A stretch of DNA of 64,000 bases from Giardia intestinalis (taxonomy: Eukaryota), in assembly GCA_000002435.2 (NCBI GenBank), contig CM018793.1; one strand, given 5' to 3'. Positions 40,674 to 49,642 of the stretch are shown here, one piece after another (position 1 is the first letter of the stretch; each line of letters starts with the position of its first letter). The notes beneath the pieces were generated by a model. The model searched no databases. It saw only the letters and a program-made list of their open reading frames with translations, and was not told where the DNA came from. Both the position numbers and the translations under genes were made by a program.

Positions 40674-43600
40674 TCATCCTGCACAGAGGCTGTGCAGCTT
40701 TTGGAAGACAGAGCGGAAAGACGCGGGGCCGGTGGCGATAGAAGAAATGTATTGCAGTGCTGCCGCCATACGCGTCATTTGGTCGTGTCTAAGCACAGAT
40801 GATGAAACCCTATTGAGTCTTTCCATAAAGACCCGCTCCACGGTATAGAAGATGTGATCAAACAAGAGGGTGTCATAATTCATAATCCACTTAAAGTCCG
40901 GCCGCTCGCTTAGTACTCGGAGCGCTTTTATGCTAGAGACAAAGCTATTGTACCCTGCTGACACAGGAGACTGTGCTCCCAGCTGCACATGTTCAGGAGG
41001 CGCGTTCAGGTCTTCGTCAAATCCCTGACGGATATGAACCGAGACATAGAGCCTCCATTCTAATATAATAAAATGCACGATCTTCTTTATCGTAAGCTCG
41101 AATCGCGAATACCATACATGGTCTGATGAAGGTGGGACTGGTGTAAATTTCTTCAAATAATCATACACGAGGATACACCCTTGAAGACAGTACAAGGCGT
41201 GCTCAAGCATACCTCCATCAACAAGGACCGCAGTGGGTAGTTTTTCTAGAAGAGCATCCCCTTCAGATTGATTCTGACTACACTTAATAGAGGCTTGTTC
41301 TGGTTCCCTAAGATCTTCGCCAATACCCCCGTTGTGTCCATCGAGTGCAAAATTAAAACTAGCACGCTCTACTTCTGCATCAAGGATCTGCAGGCTGGAT
41401 GATTGTCTGCTATGCGTTCGTGTCTTGACAGGCCTCTCACAGCCCTCCATGGTTCTGCTTTGTCTAAACGGCGCAGTTATTGGGTTTAAGGTAAAAGAGT
41501 GTGCAGCAGAGGAACGTCTTGAGATGACTGATGAGCCCGGTGTGCTGCGTCCCACACCCACAAGAGTTGAGACCCCGTCCATGGTCTGCCTGGTGTCAAT
41601 AATTTCATCGAGAATGGCAAACGTCCCCAGACTGTAGAACGAGGACACACTGGCATACTGTTCGATCCCGTGCTGTCCCAGTGCCTTGTCCAGGCTTGCA
41701 ATTCTATCGCTGGTAATGGCTGCAGAACCAATATAATCATCCAGAAGAGCTTCATACCCGCTGACAGTAGAGCCTTCGATGGGAGAATTACCAGCAGGTG
41801 TGAAGAATAGAGCATAGCTATAGAGGGCTTTATAGTGTATGTGCAAGCGCATATAAATCATGTTCAAGAACGTGTTACAGATGGTGCTAAGAATTAGAGC
41901 AGAGTTCGCTTCATAGTACTTGCTTGACATCGATGAAAACGCCATCATATCATTAAGAAAACGCAGTGTATACTGTGCAAGCTTGTATGCGGTAAGTTCA
42001 GGTCTATCAGACATGACAGTTCTTTCATCACCCAGGAGAGCACGAGCCAAAGAGTAAGAAGATTCAACGCGCAGAAGTCCCGTAGTAGATGTAAAGGCGT
42101 CGGTAAGTTCAGACGGCGCCTCACAAGTAGAGTAACAGCTAACATCATCATCAGGCTGCTGTAAGCTGGTCAAAGAAGAGAGGACCCCCAACCCGTAGAC
42201 TCGAGAGTTGGTGGTGTAAAGTCCCAGCTCGAGATCCTGAAGGGAGACCAAAGCAAAGAGATTGTTGACATTGCTGTTTATGTACGAAGTATAATTGTCC
42301 AATAATCGTGAGAAAAACTGAGTAAATATTTCATCTATTGGATTGATCTCTATTACATTGGTGAGCATGACAGCGCAATGATAGAAAGAAAGAAGGTGAT
42401 TCTCAATTAGAAGCGCGTTCCAGTTATTGGGTTTGACGGAGCTCAGAGCCTTGGAAACCCCCGGAGACGATGAATAGAGCGATAGGGATCGAACCCATGA
42501 AAGGCTGAACAAAGAACTGGTCGCAGTATCCGTTAAAACTCGCCCATCCTGGTCAGAAGCAGATGATCCCGCAGCAGCGTACACACCATCGTGCCCGCCA
42601 ATGGTGAGCTTATCACCATGCGTTTGCTGATGCATCTGCGCAGACGACTTAGCGTAGCCAGAGCTCTTGATGACCATTGAGCAGTAGTAGGCCAAGCGAC
42701 GGATGGCTGCATCATAGAATGCGCCTAAAAACTGCTTGAGACTATCATTATATCCTATAAATGGATACCTGGCATCTAAAGCAAAGATGGTATTGATGAA
42801 CGGGAGCTGCTCATTAGCCTTTATGGATACCAATTTTCCGGCAGAGGCCGCGGAAGAAAAGGAGGCAGAAATGATCCGCTTCTGATTGGTGCTTGTAGAG
42901 AAGCTGGACATAAACATAGTGGGGTCAGAAAACCCGCCAGATGGAGAAGAATCCACGTCTGTATTTAGAAATTCCAAAGCAGACGATGGATTTGTCTCCG
43001 CCAGCATGAAGAAGAGAGTTTCAAGAATCTTCTTGAAGCTTACATGCTCAGGTTGAGCCGGCGAGCCAGGAGATTGCAGAGGAGGATGGGGAGGCATTAC
43101 AGGCACCGAAGAGATCGGGACCATGGCGTCTATGTTGAATGCAGATGGCTGGAGAATGGCCCTGCTTTTCGAAGGCTGCAATGTCTTTGCAAGAGATAGC
43201 CCTACCGGGGGAGATTGTTGATTGTCAAAAGGACTCGGTTGCTTCAGCGCTTGGAGATAGAAACTATAAGAAACAAGAAACGATCCATACAATAGCGTAG
43301 CATTTATCATGGAAAAATATACTCTTTGGAAGAAGCGTCTAGTCACCTTTGCAAAATCCTTAAGCGGATTTGTGTCTACTAATCTGAACTCTGGTACATG
43401 AACACCGCCAGACGAACTAAAAATGAGTCTTCTAAGCCTTAGTACATGATCTGCTCGATGGAGATCAAGTGCAGACGAGATGTAAGACATCTTGTCGGTG
43501 GAAAGGGTAGAACTTTGACCCTCATCCACAAAGCTGGATTCTTGCTCCGCTCTGTGGTACATCTCTATTAGCCGGGAATCCATGTTCTCAACCAGAAGCC

Positions 43601-44834
43601 CCCTTAGAAAGTCCGATATGTCGCCGATTCTTCCAGCGGCTATGTCTGATTCGTGCAGCATCAAAAAACACTGTCCCAGCAGGACACCATAAAGCTCTGG
43701 AGGCATAGTATCGATGGTAGAGTTTCGAATGACGGCTTCCTGTGAGGGAGTAATGTTGAAGAACGGATTGCGTTCCAAAGCAAAGCTCTTCAGGACACCT
43801 AGTGAATCTATAAAGGTCTGAATTAGGTCGGTTGTCTGATAAGAGCGAGCAGCAACCGAGCGCAAGAACGTACAGAGTGGGAGAAATGGTAAATTCTGGA
43901 TCATCCTATAGAGGCCCAAGCTATACGAGCTAGATATGCATGGAATCGAAGAAAGTACGTCAGTATCTTGCCCAGACTGTGAAGATGACAGAGTCCCAGC
44001 TGCTCCATTGGTACCAGGAGACCCCTGCTTGGTGGTCGTAGCAGGGCTTCCAGCTAAACTGGCGACGGTGTAGAGGGATCCTGTTGCAGTGCCTTTACCG
44101 TAGAACAAAGCCATAATCTGATGCTTTAACTGATAGGATAGCCGCTCGTGATCTCTCTTGAGGCCACTCCGCATAGTATCAACATCCACAAGCACAGTCC
44201 TGGATGTCCGCATGGCAACGTCTGCAAGATGAAAAATGGCAATGGCGTTGATGAGATCCCGCTTGTGCAGAAGTTGGTCAATTAACAGGGTGGTCGATTT
44301 AAGCGCCAGAATGGAGCGGGAGATGGAGGTGGCCGCATTGAGAACTCTCCGCTTGTGGAGTAGCGCCTTAATGTCGTAATTCTCGGAGAAGTAGTGGGAT
44401 AATGTGTCGTCAGATGCCCGCAGGATGTGCTCTAGACGCGCCGTATCTGCCTTCAACGTGTCCGCAAGGGTATCCATTATTGAGAAGCACGACACCTTAT
44501 TTGCAACGCGCAGCCCATAGGTCTCGGATATAAATGTGGAAAGGTGTTGAAGCTTGTCTATAAAATCCTGAGTCGGCTTGTGTTTAAATACCGTCTTATC
44601 CACAAAGCTCTGGGGCCGGATGGAGGCATCCGTTCGCAATATGGAGTCCAATGCCTTGAGTGCGCAAAATGGGGACGAGGTGTGGAGGGCCTCCAGTGAT
44701 TGTGAAATGTATCTATCCGATCCAGGTGTGCCCTTTATTCGTTGAAATAACGTCCGTGCCGCATCGAGACTGTCTAGTTGCACAGCAGGCTGGTCGATTG
44801 TCGACTGCGTAAACTGTGTGAAGCCTGTGCTCAT
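40674..44834 (-). CDS. Very large hypothetical protein (about 1386 aa)
   Basis: 4.2-kb minus-strand ORF. The track start at 44945 is a TTG, and its first ATG would overlap the ATG of the divergent 44923 gene. The ATG at 44834 (MSTGFTQ), preceded by 'ctcaatttaacATG', is the likeliest start. No domain recognised. Confidence 0.65.
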   Translation of the reverse strand: MSTGFTQFTQSTIDQPAVQLDSLDAARTLFQRIKGTPGSDRYISQSLEALHTSSPFCALKALDSILRTDASIRPQSFVDKTVFKHKPTQDFIDKLQHLSTFISETYGLRVANKVSCFSIMDTLADTLKADTARLEHILRASDDTLSHYFSENYDIKALLHKRRVLNAATSISRSILALKSTTLLIDQLLHKRDLINAIAIFHLADVAMRTSRTVLVDVDTMRSGLKRDHERLSYQLKHQIMALFYGKGTATGSLYTVASLAGSPATTTKQGSPGTNGAAGTLSSSQSGQDTDVLSSIPCISSSYSLGLYRMIQNLPFLPLCTFLRSVAARSYQTTDLIQTFIDSLGVLKSFALERNPFFNITPSQEAVIRNSTIDTMPPELYGVLLGQCFLMLHESDIAAGRIGDISDFLRGLLVENMDSRLIEMYHRAEQESSFVDEGQSSTLSTDKMSYISSALDLHRADHVLRLRRLIFSSSGGVHVPEFRLVDTNPLKDFAKVTRRFFQRVYFSMINATLLYGSFLVSYSFYLQALKQPSPFDNQQSPPVGLSLAKTLQPSKSRAILQPSAFNIDAMVPISSVPVMPPHPPLQSPGSPAQPEHVSFKKILETLFFMLAETNPSSALEFLNTDVDSSPSGGFSDPTMFMSSFSTSTNQKRIISASFSSAASAGKLVSIKANEQLPFINTIFALDARYPFIGYNDSLKQFLGAFYDAAIRRLAYYCSMVIKSSGYAKSSAQMHQQTHGDKLTIGGHDGVYAAAGSSASDQDGRVLTDTATSSLFSLSWVRSLSLYSSSPGVSKALSSVKPNNWNALLIENHLLSFYHCAVMLTNVIEINPIDEIFTQFFSRLLDNYTSYINSNVNNLFALVSLQDLELGLYTTNSRVYGLGVLSSLTSLQQPDDDVSCYSTCEAPSELTDAFTSTTGLLRVESSYSLARALLGDERTVMSDRPELTAYKLAQYTLRFLNDMMAFSSMSSKYYEANSALILSTICNTFLNMIYMRLHIHYKALYSYALFFTPAGNSPIEGSTVSGYEALLDDYIGSAAITSDRIASLDKALGQHGIEQYASVSSFYSLGTFAILDEIIDTRQTMDGVSTLVGVGRSTPGSSVISRRSSAAHSFTLNPITAPFRQSRTMEGCERPVKTRTHSRQSSSLQILDAEVERASFNFALDGHNGGIGEDLREPEQASIKCSQNQSEGDALLEKLPTAVLVDGGMLEHALYCLQGCILVYDYLKKFTPVPPSSDHVWYSRFELTIKKIVHFIILEWRLYVSVHIRQGFDEDLNAPPEHVQLGAQSPVSAGYNSFVSSIKALRVLSERPDFKWIMNYDTLLFDHIFYTVERVFMERLNRVSSSVLRHDQMTRMAAALQYISSIATGPASFRSVFQKLHSLCAG

Positions 44835-44922
44835 GTTAAATTGAGTCAGGGAGTTTATAAGTGAAAACAGTGGAAGAAAGCAGTGGAACCTTAAAAATCG
44901 ATAATAAGTAAACCAAAAAATC

Positions 44923-47370
44923 ATGGCTCCGCGCTCGGTACTCAAGCGAGAATGGTTCGATGCGATCTATCGCGGTGATGTAGAATGTGTCTCTCAGATG
45001 CTTCCTCAGATGAAAAAGACCTGTAACCAGTGGGGAGAAACCGGATTAATGATTTCCGCGAAGGAGGGCAACCTAACTATGGCAGAACTTCTGGCTCCCC
45101 ACGAAGCAGGAATGACCAATGTGGAAGGAAGAACTGCCCTAATGCTTGCAGCTGCAGCCAACAATCCAGAGATCTGTAAAATTTTGGTCACAGAGGAGAA
45201 GCACATTGTGACCTTGGACTCTCGTAACGCGCTCATGTTTGCAGCTGCAGCCAATGCTGCTGACGCAGCAGAGATACTCATATGTGATCTTGGAAAGACC
45301 CGCGACGCCTTAGGCCGGGCACCTCTTCATTATGCTGTGCTTAGCCGAGCTCCCCACGTGGTTCAACTTATTCTTCAATATCCTAATGACATATCTCACG
45401 ACGATGTGTCTCTCCTGTTGGATTATGCCAAAGAGTACGGATATGACACGATTATACAGATGCTCACCGAGTACGACCCTATAAACAGGCTCATGGAGTT
45501 CGATCAGGTTTCACTTATCAAGCTATCTGAACTACAACAGTTGATGCAGAGGTTTCCCAGTTCCTCACTAAGATCAGAAGCCACCAAGCTTCTCAGTGAA
45601 GCGACGGAGTCGATAACCATTGACCTAGAGAAAAAAACGGCTATGATAGACGGTTATCATAACGAGATCAGTATGCTGCACGAACGCATTTCGGTACTCA
45701 ATGAAACGATTAATCAACAGCAGAAAGAGCTTGATGGACTTTATAAAATGGTGAAGCTGGGGATATCTGGAATAGATAGCAGTAAGCAGAGCATGCCCGC
45801 ATCAGAGTTTGCAATCAAGCGAGCACAGGAGCTGATGGTCAAGCCCATGTCTGTGGATTCATCTAAGGTAAATCATGACGATCACGATGAGAAATACAGT
45901 GATAGATGTAGTACTGACTTGCACGAGGATCTCCAGTATCATGAGGGCAGTGATGCTATCCCTGGATCTACAGAGGCAAAGAGCTTGGAAACTTACTTAG
46001 CTCGCACAAAGTCCACTCCGTCTCGCGCTGATACGACAGATGAGAGAACGTGCTTATCTGACAGAGACCAGCAAGCCCTGGTGACAGACCCAACTATTGA
46101 AACAGAGGATTCGCCGTCTGCGAATTTTCATACACATCAAGACACTATGGTTAAAGGAACAGAAGAGTATGAAAACCGTGCTCTACCAATTTCATACTCT
46201 CCAGATGTTGATAATGATGAGGAGCGTCAGTACCTGGCTTACATGGCGCTGATGGCTGAGATTGATGAAGAGCACGGCGTAGTCGCTCGCCCACTCGAGA
46301 AACCGCCGCCTCACTTAACGCTGCCACGCATGCGTGAAAGCATAGGAACAGATGAAGTTGACGCCATAGTTTCTACTGGTTCTTTAGCAAGCGACCTAAA
46401 AGAGCTCCCGATGGGTGTCTCGACTGAGAATCAAAGTACTACGGAAGAAGTCGATAAGGACAATACTTTTCCCGTCACTTCGTCTATAGATGGACAAATC
46501 GAACCTTTGGACCCACAGCAACCAAGAGAACTCATTCTTTTAGAATCAGATATCCCCAAAAAGGAAACACTTACTTCGATATCGAGTGATCAAATAGCCA
46601 CAGCTGATCAGTACCATGATCAAGATTGTCCCACAGTTTCTGCCAAGCCACTAGATGACAGTAAAGCAAGCCCGTGCACCTTCAGTAGCCAGCCTTCAGA
46701 CCACGGTGATTCTTCAGAAATGGTTATTAGGATGGTATCAGAGGAGGAGTCCATACGCGATGAAAACGTTCAATTGGCATATCAATATGAAACGCCAGCA
46801 GAGCCCCCTGCAGACGAGGCGGTGATCGACGCCATCCCGGAGCCCCCTGCAGACGAGGCGGTGATCGACGCCATCCCGGAGCCCCCTGCAGACGAGGCGG
46901 TGATCGACGCCATCCCAGAGCCCCCTGCAGACGAGGCGGTGATCGACGCCATCCCGGAGCCCCCTGCAGACGAGGCGGTGATCGACGCCATCCCAGAGCC
47001 CCCTGCAGACGAGGCGGTGATCGACGCCATCCCAGAGCCCCCTGCAGACGAGGCGGTGATCGACGCCATCCCGGAGCCCCCTGCAGACGAGGCGGTGATC
47101 GACGCCATCCCAGAGCCCCCTGCAGACGAGGCGGTGATCGACGCCATCCCAGAGCCCCCTGCAGACGAGGCGGTGATCGACGCCATCCCAGAGCCCCCTG
47201 CAGACGAGGCGGTGATCGACGCCATCCCAGAGCCCCCTGCAGACGAGGCGGTGATCGACGCCATCCCAGAGCCCCCTGCAGACGAGGCGGTGATCGACGC
47301 CATCCCGGAGCCCCCTGCAGACGAGGCGGTGATAGAGACGGACCAACTAGGAGAAGACGGCAGCAATTAG
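44923..47370 (+). CDS. Ankyrin-repeat protein with C-terminal 13 x PPADEAVIDAIPE tandem peptide repeats (815 aa)
   Basis: Initiator 'aaaccaaaaaatcATGgct'. N-terminal ankyrin repeats (GETGLMISAKEGNLTMAELL; RTALMLAAAANNPEICKILV; RNALMFAAAANAADAAEIL; RAPLHYAVLSRAPHVVQLIL). A coiled-coil and acidic middle follows. The C-terminus is encoded by the 39-bp tandem array. Confidence 0.8.
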   Translation: MAPRSVLKREWFDAIYRGDVECVSQMLPQMKKTCNQWGETGLMISAKEGNLTMAELLAPHEAGMTNVEGRTALMLAAAANNPEICKILVTEEKHIVTLDSRNALMFAAAANAADAAEILICDLGKTRDALGRAPLHYAVLSRAPHVVQLILQYPNDISHDDVSLLLDYAKEYGYDTIIQMLTEYDPINRLMEFDQVSLIKLSELQQLMQRFPSSSLRSEATKLLSEATESITIDLEKKTAMIDGYHNEISMLHERISVLNETINQQQKELDGLYKMVKLGISGIDSSKQSMPASEFAIKRAQELMVKPMSVDSSKVNHDDHDEKYSDRCSTDLHEDLQYHEGSDAIPGSTEAKSLETYLARTKSTPSRADTTDERTCLSDRDQQALVTDPTIETEDSPSANFHTHQDTMVKGTEEYENRALPISYSPDVDNDEERQYLAYMALMAEIDEEHGVVARPLEKPPPHLTLPRMRESIGTDEVDAIVSTGSLASDLKELPMGVSTENQSTTEEVDKDNTFPVTSSIDGQIEPLDPQQPRELILLESDIPKKETLTSISSDQIATADQYHDQDCPTVSAKPLDDSKASPCTFSSQPSDHGDSSEMVIRMVSEEESIRDENVQLAYQYETPAEPPADEAVIDAIPEPPADEAVIDAIPEPPADEAVIDAIPEPPADEAVIDAIPEPPADEAVIDAIPEPPADEAVIDAIPEPPADEAVIDAIPEPPADEAVIDAIPEPPADEAVIDAIPEPPADEAVIDAIPEPPADEAVIDAIPEPPADEAVIDAIPEPPADEAVIDAIPEPPADEAVIETDQLGEDGSN
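46801..47333 (+). repeat. In-frame tandem repeat: 13 complete 39-bp units plus one partial (gagccccctgcagacgaggcggtgatcgacgccatccc[g/a])
   Basis: Read directly: units are identical except for a synonymous G/A at the last position (pattern G,G,A,G,A,A,G,A,A,A,A,A,G). The array encodes (E)PPADEAVIDAIP x13, and the final unit diverges to ...AVIETDQ. Confidence 0.97.
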
Positions 47371-47416
47371 GGTCTATTTCCATCTCTGATACTGATGAGG
47401 AGACAACCCATACAGT

Positions 47417-49642
47417 TCACTTTCGCCGGCTGGTTCTTAGTTGTTGTAAGTGCATTTTCATCGTATTAGTGAACGTAGGGCTCATTTCGTTTAGCTTTGG
47501 TTCGCTTATAGCAAATTCTAAAGAAAACAGCAAATTAACCATGTCAATGTCGTTGTGGTTTGCTGCATAAGTCAGGGCTGTCGAACCATCCGGAGTAGCT
47601 AGGCCTCCTTCAGACCCAAGTAGTAAGGTTGCGATAGAAAGCTGGCCGGTAGCAGCTGCCTTCATCAGCGCTGTGCGTCCTTTGATATCTCGTAACCCTG
47701 TTTCCTGGCGCAGAAGGAGCTGAATGCAGTTGAATCTTTTATTCAGTACCGCATGCATAAGGGCTGTGTTACCTACTCGATCCGTCATCCTACACTCTTC
47801 GGGTAAAAGGATCTCGACGCAGTTCAAGCTGTCGGATATAGCCGCATACATAAGAGCCGTTTTGCCGTCCTCGTCGTACTGGCGAACCTGTGAAATCCAC
47901 TGCTTCACACCCTTCGAGTCTCCGATTGTCGCCGCCTTCATAAGGTTTGTGTGCCCATGAATCGAAACTCCTGTGGGAGTTCGTTTAGCTACGTGGTCTT
48001 TGGACGATAACGAGTGCGGAAGACCCTGCCGAGACTCATGGCGGCTCGGAGTCATGGTATTGACGCTTTCGGACTTGCACATGTTGCGACTAACACGGCT
48101 ATCACTTCGTTGGTTACGCGAATAGGGGCGTGAATCAGTGGTACCACGGGATCCCTCTACTTGATAGTCATATCTTGCAGTGCCGTGTCCGGAAAACGCA
48201 GAATGCTGAAGAGTAGTTGTAGCACAACCTTGGGATATTCGGTGCTTAGACGACGAAGATCTGCTTCTAGTCGAAGTGTCCCCATCCGTCATCCGTTTCA
48301 AATATGCTGGAAGGGCACTCGTGTCTATTGAAACGGTAGTCCCATCTGCAAAATGTCTAGGATTCTCAGGTATATCCTTGTGTGCACGATCAGATACCCT
48401 CACCGCCGCATCACCGTAGACGCTTGGGTTCTCCAGTAGTGAATAGTTAATCTCTTTGGGTCCTCCTGAAGGGTAGCGCTTAACTTTATCAGCACCATCG
48501 CTTTGGCCCCCGTGATCATGGAACCCTCCAGAACTGAGACCTTTACCATGAACACTCTCTAGAGATTCGAGGGGCTGCGCATGTGCATGTCCACACTGCT
48601 TGGACGATTTTCGGAGATCTATGGGATGAACACTGCTTGGCCGAGAAGTGCGGGACGTGCTAATAGATCTGCTTCCCCGCCTACTCAAGTCGTCGTCACC
48701 AGACTGCACCGTTCTATTTCCGGGTGTATGCTTCAGAGTGTAGTCAAGGTCGTTGAGAATACTAGTATCGTAGACGCCACGCTCAATCAGTCGCTTAACA
48801 GCACTTACTATTTGGGGCACCTGAGCAAGCTCAGACGAAGAGGGCCGAGCATTGTGATCTACGACTAGAATTTTATATATGAACCCAATCAGGTCATTAG
48901 AGTACATTCCCTGCGGTAGCCTGAGATTCTGTGCTGAAAATTTTGAGAACTCCGTGGTGTAATCAGTAGAATGCGAAAAATTGAAAATTGGTCTATTTGT
49001 GCACATTTCACACACTATGCAGCCAAGAGACCAAATATCCACCTTCTCGTTGTAAGGCTTCCGCAAGAGTATTTCTGGTGCCATGTATGAAAACGTACCG
49101 GCAAAGGTCATTTTCGCATCCGCCGATTCAATCACCCGCGACAAGTTGAAATCCCCTATCTTGACCGCACCAGTACTAGATAGAAATACGTTATCAGGCT
49201 TTAGATCTCTGTGTATAATCCGACCGATGCCAGAGGCATTTTCCTTGATTGGTGAGTGCAAATACCGCAAAGCCAATACCATCTGTGCCGTAATGTCCCA
49301 GACAAACGTCTCCGGGATATTTTGCCGACACTGGTGGTACTTATCAATGAGATTAGACAGAGAGCCGCTTTCTAGAAACTCCATTGAAAGCATAATCTTT
49401 CCTGGTATTTCGTTAAAAACCTCAAAATGCTGGACTAGATTTGGGTGGCTTATGCGCGGGATTATCTCTAGCTCTGTCTTCATTGCGCGCAAAACCCCAG
49501 ACGATAGCTGCCGTACTTTATACTCTTTAATAGCCACTTTCCGCTTCTTATTCGTCTCCCAGGCACTGTAAACAGTCCCGAATGCCCCACAGCCCACTGT
49601 GGCTATTTGATCGAACCCCCGGGGAACAACCAAGTCAGCCAT
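47417..49642 (-). CDS. NEK-family Ser/Thr kinase with C-terminal ankyrin repeats (741 aa)
   Basis: GCGAFGTVYSAWE, VAIKEY, HRDLKPDNVFL, DFNLS, FSYMAPE. S/R-rich middle. Three to four ankyrin repeats at the C-terminus (TNLMKAATIGDSKGVKQWI; KTALMYAAISDSLNCVEILL; NTALMHAVLNKRFNCIQLLL; RTALMKAAATGQLSIATLLL). An A/T-rich initiator lies upstream on the minus strand. Confidence 0.9.
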   Translation of the reverse strand: MADLVVPRGFDQIATVGCGAFGTVYSAWETNKKRKVAIKEYKVRQLSSGVLRAMKTELEIIPRISHPNLVQHFEVFNEIPGKIMLSMEFLESGSLSNLIDKYHQCRQNIPETFVWDITAQMVLALRYLHSPIKENASGIGRIIHRDLKPDNVFLSSTGAVKIGDFNLSRVIESADAKMTFAGTFSYMAPEILLRKPYNEKVDIWSLGCIVCEMCTNRPIFNFSHSTDYTTEFSKFSAQNLRLPQGMYSNDLIGFIYKILVVDHNARPSSSELAQVPQIVSAVKRLIERGVYDTSILNDLDYTLKHTPGNRTVQSGDDDLSRRGSRSISTSRTSRPSSVHPIDLRKSSKQCGHAHAQPLESLESVHGKGLSSGGFHDHGGQSDGADKVKRYPSGGPKEINYSLLENPSVYGDAAVRVSDRAHKDIPENPRHFADGTTVSIDTSALPAYLKRMTDGDTSTRSRSSSSKHRISQGCATTTLQHSAFSGHGTARYDYQVEGSRGTTDSRPYSRNQRSDSRVSRNMCKSESVNTMTPSRHESRQGLPHSLSSKDHVAKRTPTGVSIHGHTNLMKAATIGDSKGVKQWISQVRQYDEDGKTALMYAAISDSLNCVEILLPEECRMTDRVGNTALMHAVLNKRFNCIQLLLRQETGLRDIKGRTALMKAAATGQLSIATLLLGSEGGLATPDGSTALTYAANHNDIDMVNLLFSLEFAISEPKLNEMSPTFTNTMKMHLQQLRTSRRK

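Follow-up and report, generated by a model that had tools for sequence, protein, structure and literature searches.

The window analysed here is the whole 64,000-nucleotide stretch of Giardia intestinalis contig CM018793.1 (GenBank assembly GCA_000002435.2). A scan of the window with Tandem Repeats Finder (TRF) identifies a 39-bp array as its sole substantial tandem repeat, and this array lies near the 3′ end of a complete ankyrin-repeat gene. The gene, recognized as an open reading frame (ORF) with an exact database match, encodes a member of the ARP-1 family (for ankyrin repeat protein 1), also known as protein 21.1. Its parts are listed below, with structural assignments taken from Pfam and from an AlphaFold2 (AF2) model with its per-residue confidence (predicted local distance difference test, pLDDT).

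44923..47370, plus strand: complete gene of the ankyrin repeat protein 1/protein 21.1 family, 815 amino acids (aa), 88.9 kDa, isoelectric point about 4.1
44923..45477, plus strand: N-terminal ankyrin-repeat domain, aa 1-185 (Pfam; AF2 helical pairs at 4-183, mostly pLDDT 60-90)
45562..45780, plus strand: one long helix predicted at aa 214-286 that may form a coiled coil (AF2, block pLDDT 78-94)
45823..46800, plus strand: linker, acidic and largely disordered, comprising aa 301-626 with a net charge of -44 (AF2 pLDDT about 30; composition)
46216..46272, plus strand: conserved short helix EERQYLAYMALMAEIDEEH, aa 432-450, within the linker (AF2; alignment)
46801..47307, plus strand: thirteen full units of 39 bp that each encode EPPADEAVIDAIP, together aa 627-795
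47308..47333, plus strand: partial 14th unit, its 26 nt the same as in the full units, encoding EPPADEAV(I)
47334..47370, plus strand: unique C-terminal tail ETDQLGEDGSN followed by a TAG stop (sequence read-out)

The array is read in frame 0 of ORF 44923-47370 (+), whose product contains EPPADEAVIDAIP thirteen times in succession, then EPPADEAVIETDQLGEDGSN and the stop. TRF places the repeat at 46799-47333, with a period of 39, 13.7 copies, 98% matches, 0 indels and a score of 1035. A preliminary description of the window had proposed a perfect 13 x 39-bp coding array, and 13 units are indeed present in frame, followed by the 26-bp partial. The single synonymous G/A change that it placed at the unit end is also the only difference seen in a 39-base read-out (5 G, 8 A): five full units, numbers 1, 2, 4, 7 and 13, read GAGCCCCCTGCAGACGAGGCGGTGATCGACGCCATCCCG, and the other eight end in CCA instead, with CCG and CCA both encoding proline. 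Fourteen mismatch-free copies of the 26-nt core are present in the array and none elsewhere in the window, and 100 shuffles produced 0 matches to it. With head-to-tail units in the range of 10-100 bp, a period that is a multiple of 3 and an in-frame position (39 bp x 13.7), the array has the properties of a minisatellite.

At the protein level, the array comprises 52 D/E, 0 K/R and 39 P residues (31% D/E, 23% P; 17 kDa) and has a net charge of -52. At the DNA level, it forms a sharp GC island, with a GC content of 0.70 (0.80 at third codon positions, GC3) compared with 0.47 (GC3 0.45) in the rest of the coding sequence, and the unit is GC-rich (0.67-0.74) in every assemblage. GC-biased gene conversion in a recombining tract is one cause compatible with the high GC of the array, although a speculative one. 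A scan for bacterial promoters and terminators gave counts equal to those of shuffled sequences and is irrelevant for a eukaryote.

The 815-aa product is identical to "Ankyrin repeat protein 1" of G. intestinalis WB clone C6 (XP_001708954.1, KAE8305335.1, UniProt A8B861), and we assign the gene to GL50803_112557. In GiardiaDB headers, that locus is a hypothetical protein with a length of 815, placed at GLCHR05:2622178-2624625(+), a span of 2448 nt that equals the length of the ORF here, and it is located on an older scaffold at CH991768:363283-365730, also with length 815 (PMC7332775 and PMC3877021 supplements). Its orthologue in isolate GS is GL50581_1053 (Franzen et al. 2009, Table S6, PMC2723961). 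ARP-1 is the protein 21.1 family renamed, a group of 267 members that have ankyrin repeats but no kinase, zinc finger or further domain, as defined by Xu et al. 2020 (PMC7000408), and the TALM-type ankyrin class was set out by Manning et al. 2011 (PMC3218828). Pfam detects Ank_2 at aa 13-160 (E=8.6e-24), with Ank, Ank_3, Ank_4 and Ank_5 also above cut-offs. At E<=0.01, ankyrin families are the only matches in the product, with neither kinase nor zinc finger, in agreement with the definition of ARP-1. TALM-like motifs are found at aa 40 (TGLM), 71 (TALM) and 102 (NALM), and the UniRef name of the orthologue from isolate P15 is "Protein 21.1". By all four criteria that were tested, the 815-aa protein belongs to the protein 21.1/ARP-1 family. 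In the literature library searched, the accession, the peptide and the gene identifier led to no paper that treats the gene or its repeat in the main text, and to no localisation, interaction, phenotype or serology data; searches of the Giardia literature on minisatellites and variable-number tandem repeats (VNTRs) returned nothing specific.

Syntenic orthologues are located between a gene of 1380-1423 aa upstream (-) and a Nek kinase gene of 741-744 aa downstream (-). In assemblages A, E and B, each has an array that starts from a matching codon position and shares the period of 39 bp, as follows.

WB (this window): unit EPPADEAVIDAIP, 13.7 copies
AII-like MEGAHIT contig, flanks 98.9% identical: unit EPPADEAVIDAIP, 1 + partial (1.7)
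P15, assemblage E: unit EPPADEALIDPIP, 2 + partial (2.7)
BAH15c1, assemblage B: unit EPPADEGEADALG, 4 + degenerate terminal unit
GS_B, assemblage B: unit EPPADEGEVNALG, 6 copies
GS H7, 454 assembly: unit EPPADEGEVNALG, 3 copies

Copy numbers other than that of WB derive from 454, Illumina, MEGAHIT and Logan assemblies and are lower bounds of uncertain quality. The degenerate unit that terminates the array in assemblage B reads EPLPHEDLASDIS, and the tails of P15 (EINLPEEDGSN) and the AII-like contig (ETDQPGEDGSN) are orthologous to ETDQLGEDGSN of WB. Unit 3 of GS H7 (L007 3897-3935, ACGJ01001410.1) reads RAPSGRGEVNALG, with a compensating +1/-1 indel pair typical of homopolymer errors, and it shares GCG/GGGG variants with unit 6 of GS_B (L005 4014-4052). 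A comparison of the two loci suggests that the 3-unit array of GS H7 is the 6-unit array in collapsed form and with errors, in which case unit 3 of the deposited protein EET01697.1 is probably incorrect.

The units are nearly identical within each genome and differ between lineages to about the same extent as the flanking sequence. Divergence within arrays is about 0, WB having 1 variable site in 39. WB and P15 differ at 4/39 unit sites with a flank identity of 85.5%, WB and assemblage B at 11/39 sites with a flank identity of 73%, and BAH15c1 and GS_B, whose flanks are 99% identical, at 2/39 non-synonymous sites that are fixed in all units. A and E have an orthologous junction where the partial unit gives way to the unique tail. 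The two sites at which A and E differ within the 26 nt of the partial (positions 9 and 22) are common to full and partial units in each lineage, a pattern that, as aligned here, is a direct sign of conversion or exchange between copies after the A/E split. Because units are uniform within genomes, diverge between genomes as the flanks do and end at a shared junction, the array locus is, by this comparison of sequences, old, predating the A/E/B split and continuously turned over by concerted evolution. The preliminary description had left the choice between very recent expansion and concerted evolution; the latter is retained here, acting on an old array with orthologues in A, E and B. It had also argued that equal unit counts combined with diverged units in the orthologues would indicate an old, stable array, and instead the counts in the assemblies differ and the units are uniform in each genome.

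Conservation within the unit is uneven. In the first 18 nt, which encode EPPADE, a single synonymous third position varies across all lineages (CCT/CCG/CCA), and in the last 21 nt, 10-13 sites differ between A/E and B. The hydrophobic second half (AVIDAI) is not retained in B (GEADALG/GEVNALG). By our own estimate, 17/18 conserved bases have a binomial chance of about 0.01 when the flanks are about 70% identical, so that the conservation of EPPADE is unlikely to be due to chance and implies some constraint on that half, at the protein or DNA level.

A more divergent, Giardia-like orthologue, P0004, is encoded on an 8.7-kb Logan contig of SRR30592944 (locus L004 2153-4231, GC 54-57%). It is 42% identical over the N-terminal 37% of the query (BLASTP) and 31% identical in the full alignment, its cluster contains no NCBI-named member, and the gene downstream of it, on the minus strand, has ankyrin repeats and matches a kinase weakly. 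Its tail is acidic, proline-rich and non-repetitive, and no vestigial unit was found in it, the best local score falling inside the shuffle distribution and TRF reporting nothing. A word-indexed search with the non-ankyrin, non-repeat region of the protein retrieved A/E/B orthologues only, making that region complex-specific at such sensitivity, and a metagenome scan with a two-unit pattern gave 0 matches. From the comparison with P0004, the array may be specific to the G. intestinalis complex.

The array is open in five of its six reading frames, with no stops in the three antisense frames and 14 in sense frame 2; the antisense frames are also stop-free in the A, E and B units. The lack of antisense stops is explained by the roughly 70% GC of the unit. 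The following antisense ORFs result.

46727..47383, minus strand: spurious ORF of 218 aa, repeat-derived, without independent support
46738-47346, minus strand: spurious ORF of 202 aa, repeat-derived, without independent support
46782-47366, minus strand: spurious ORF of 194 aa, repeat-derived, without independent support

The preliminary description had already treated three antisense ORFs of about 200 aa as spurious, and those of 218, 202 and 194 aa are by-products of GC richness.

Expression of the gene is documented in published proteomes. Müller et al. 2020 report GL50803_112557 with 12 razor-plus-unique peptides and 20.2% coverage (PMC7332775 supplement), identified by tandem mass spectrometry (MS/MS) in 9/9 WBC6, 9/9 WBA1 and 2 GS/M-H7 samples and by matching in 7 more GS/M-H7 samples (PMC7332775). 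Faso et al. 2013 list spectral counts for it in encystation, together with a "Cytosol" prediction (PMC3877021 supplement). The protein is thus present in two shotgun proteomes, where the preliminary description had regarded its absence as an argument against coding relevance. The last K/R of the protein is aa 612, and the C-terminal tryptic fragment measures 203 aa and 20.8 kDa. With no K/R over 203 aa, the array is out of reach of trypsin-based MS, and neither proteome can have seen it. The peptide check proposed earlier, with PPADEAVIDAIPE, needs Glu-C or Asp-N rather than trypsin. From the open frame and the peptides detected upstream, we infer that the array is translated.

In the predicted architecture of the protein, an ankyrin domain and one long helix stand out from an otherwise largely disordered chain. 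AF2 models the ankyrin domain (aa 1-183) with confidence, and outside this domain and two helices, the pLDDT is <50; the array has a pLDDT of about 30 and no secondary structure (447-815 about 30). Pfam ankyrin repeats, the AF2 ankyrin domain and the long helix as a coiled-coil candidate agree with the ankyrin/coiled-coil scaffold described earlier. That the array is appended to this scaffold holds in the sense that it forms the C-terminus of the same protein, but a disordered acidic linker of ~326 aa intervenes. The array itself is predicted to be an intrinsically disordered acidic tail, PEVK-like in composition and in having no stable predicted fold. The N-terminus, MAPRSVLKREWFDAIYRGD, has no hydrophobic stretch by inspection only, no dedicated signal predictor having been applied. 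The EERQYLAYMALMAEIDEEH helix in the linker is the sole conserved, ordered island of the disordered C-terminal half; in an alignment of A/E/B with P0004, the relative at 31% identity, 11 of its columns are invariant. Judging from the alignment and the model, this helix is a better candidate than the array for a specific binding motif.

Genes are very tightly packed around the ARP locus. The divergent upstream ORF (40674-44945, minus strand, 1423 aa) encodes a conserved protein without a Pfam match at E<=0.01. Its synteny holds in every assemblage, and as an ORF it overlaps the ARP start-codon region (44923-44945). Gene callers give it 1384-1416 aa in other isolates, and the overlap in assemblage B is 38 nt. 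The convergent Nek kinase gene (47417-49642, minus strand) ends 46 bp past the ARP stop.

We consider it probable that the array is a coding minisatellite, or VNTR, near the 3′ end of an ankyrin-repeat gene, and that it is old, homogenised and translated as a disordered acidic tail. A short array of 39 bp (13 codons) would already have been present in the common ancestor of A, E and B. In each lineage, the copies would since have been held near-identical while their number shifted, reaching 13.7 in WB today. The likely processes are homology-driven: slippage during replication, unequal exchange between sister chromatids or alleles, and gene conversion. The resulting tail of ~17 kDa, punctuated by prolines, would sit behind the ankyrin domain, the long helix and the acidic linker. 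Selection would act on the reading frame (the period being divisible by 3), the acidity and the EPPADE half, leaving the rest of the unit and the copy number to drift freely. In such a protein, the tail would most likely serve as a length-variable polyanionic spacer or a low-specificity multivalent tail rather than as a folded domain.

Several points weigh against parts of this account. The AF2 model was computed from a shallow alignment of 7 orthologue sequences, and low pLDDT is then weak evidence of disorder. No array peptide is on record, and trypsin can yield none. The single-strand DNA structure of the unit is not unusual against shuffled sequences (z -0.65 and +1.73) and offers no explanation for instability. 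The isolate counts of 13.7, 6, 4, 3, 2.7 and 1.7 come, outside WB, from collapse-prone assemblies, and the variation among them is confounded with technology. Finally, the 3 units of GS H7 and the 6 of GS_B come from the same isolate lineage, a discrepancy between assemblies.

Other explanations address the length of the array, its age and its reading frame. That the 13.7 copies were over-expanded in assembly from a shorter array is very improbable, even though short-read assemblies with WB-identical or near-identical flanks give only 1.7 units. In the Logan contig SRR3602127, flanks 100% identical to WB enclose one full and one partial unit (1.7), and the MEGAHIT k141 contig holds 1.7 units likewise. 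Such a value is expected because de Bruijn graph assembly collapses a perfect repeat longer than k, one instance of a general tandem-repeat assembly problem (PMC6868369). The Logan count most likely represents a collapsed array, judging from its sequence, and the short-read collapse anticipated in the preliminary description is apparent in both contigs, at 1.7 units against 13.7. The interspersed G/A variants would also be hard to produce by error. Moreover, the same 815 aa appear under two WB records, and length 815 is given on both the old scaffold and the chromosome coordinates, so 13.7 is not the artefact of one assembly; XP_001708954.1 presumably represents the 2007 Sanger assembly and KAE8305335.1 the 2020 PacBio assembly of Xu et al. 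We likewise regard as unlikely a history in which a single ancestral 39-bp copy was amplified separately and recently in each lineage, uniformity being a mark of youth. Such expansions would likewise leave each genome with uniform units and make genomes differ in their units about as much as in their flanks; the lack of singleton mutations in 507 bp of WB is consistent with a very young expansion, and five successive A-type units (8-12) resemble a local burst. However, at least two units occupy orthologous positions in all lineages, A and E have a common partial-unit/tail junction, and B retains the degenerate terminal unit. The pattern at positions 9 and 22 in full and partial units requires exchange after the A/E split, and three or more expansions at the same phase are less parsimonious than one old array. 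The two unit differences fixed between BAH15c1 and GS_B, whose flanks are almost the same, also favour concerted evolution over separate amplifications. The chance that the real coding sequence lies on the antisense strand, in the ORF of 218, 202 or 194 aa, or in the other open sense frame is negligible. Five of six frames do run open through the array, but such ORFs consist almost wholly of repeat and are accounted for by its 70% GC, the sense frame runs on from a conserved ankyrin protein detected by MS, and its first six codons vary between lineages only at a synonymous third position. Whole-unit changes in copy number suit any frame and do not discriminate between them.

A further question is whether the unit has a specific function. 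It is quite unlikely that the array presents a multivalent ligand for a specific partner or a series of epitopes, with the 13-mer acting as a linear motif, an amphipathic helix (ADEAVIDAI, AKAP-like) or an immunodominant repeat. EPPADE is conserved across assemblages with synonymous change only, repeats confer avidity, and in trypanosomatids and Plasmodium the antigens of B cells are often tandem-repeat proteins, all of which count in favour of such a role. On the other side, B has lost the A-x-x-A-V-x-x-A-I pattern seen in assemblage A, the AF2 model shows no helix across the array, and no related repeat occurs in other Giardia proteins, the similar-scoring matches being unrelated acidic periodic repeats. 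The missing N-terminal hydrophobic signal (by inspection) and the predicted cytosolic location (PMC3877021) speak against a surface antigen. Particular forms of this idea were considered individually and rejected. An AKAP-like amphipathic helix would need >=14 residues, and only 9 lie between prolines; readings as a SUMO-interacting motif (SIM) or a clathrin box, made by eye, depend on residues that are not conserved in assemblage B; and a parasite surface antigen would be expected to carry a signal or anchor. It is also unlikely that the array works as a functional length dial rather than reflecting neutral drift of a repeat. EPPADE would then be a weak docking motif, and copy number (about 2 to 14) would set the valency or reach of the ankyrin/coiled-coil protein in the Giardia cytoskeleton, with differences among assemblages and isolates having phenotypic consequences. 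In its practical version, the same proposal holds that the locus is a high-resolution VNTR sub-typing marker with assemblage-specific units.

The old, homogenised minisatellite that we favour has practical and conceptual implications. With an assemblage-specific unit and an apparently variable copy number, the locus is a candidate VNTR of a size suited to the polymerase chain reaction (PCR) for Giardia sub-typing; to our knowledge, Giardia is currently without a gp60-like sub-typing marker. Giardia is a tetraploid, supposedly asexual protist, and as a documented case of concerted evolution, the array bears weakly on the extent of recombination and gene conversion in this organism. The locus also exemplifies database misrepresentation, the gene appearing at 634/659 aa (collapsed) versus 815 aa and the GS lineage at 3 or 6 units. 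In tryptic proteomics, quantification and coverage figures for the protein ignore a quarter of its length, including the 17-kDa array.

Comparison with known systems indicates that the array is an ordinary case of a known phenomenon, in a sequence that has been public since 2007, and no new kind of system. Within the protein 21.1/ARP-1 family, the protein is typical in its TALM-type ankyrin N-terminus, its lack of a kinase or zinc finger and its helical, coiled-coil-like segment, and the adjoining gene, a Nek kinase with ankyrin repeats, is typical of such a genomic context. Unlike the family as defined in the cited papers, which is recognized by ankyrin repeats and not by a C-terminal array, this member carries one; and in contrast to strain-variable members, it has one orthologue each in A, E and B, at a syntenic position.

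Coding minisatellites and VNTRs are well known from the yeast FLO adhesins, the Cryptosporidium gp60 serine repeat and the CSP and MSP repeats of Plasmodium. The Giardia array resembles these in its multiple-of-3 units, near-identity within the array, divergence between lineages, apparent differences in copy number between isolates and collapse in short-read assemblies. It differs in that they mostly belong to proteins at the surface or secreted, on which immunity or adhesion exerts selection, whereas this protein is signal-less and predicted to be cytosolic, and no phenotype is tied to the copy number of its array. Repeats in the variant-specific surface proteins (VSPs) of Giardia, such as GL50803_221693 (PMC7332775 Fig. 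S2), are likewise perfect or near-perfect and in frame in the same organism. They are, however, long, cysteine-rich, extracellular and folded, whereas this unit is 13 aa long, acidic, cysteine-free and predicted to be disordered.

The closest physical resemblance is to acidic spacer repeats of the titin PEVK-like kind. An exhaustive phmmer search with aa 600-815 returned 211 matches at E<=1e-3. As homologues these were rejected, the best being unrelated proteins with periodic acidic, proline-containing repeats of their own (13/26/39 residues), and no homologous EPPADE repeat was found in other proteins in the databases searched. A word-indexed search with four units and the tail scored no protein, its own cluster included, probably through candidate saturation or bias filtering, and carries no weight here. 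Among them, P0036, P0040, P0041 and P0047 are unrelated proteins with 13-residue acidic periodic repeats, for example AAAEPVVEVAPEP x13 (P0047), APEQPTDVVVEEA (P0036) and PPPVDKPTVDAVQ. Acidic spacer repeats, including those of P0047 and P0036, share with the Giardia array a period of ~13 residues, richness in P/E/D/V/A, predicted disorder and a terminal position, and several have almost no basic residues. They have no common ancestry with it; the matches are compositional and periodic (13-47% identity), and the domains attached are unrelated. A 13-residue P/E/D/V spacer repeat may, from these sequences, be a recurrent convergent solution, and the analogy suggests a shared physical role for the Giardia array and these repeats as an extended, charged spacer.

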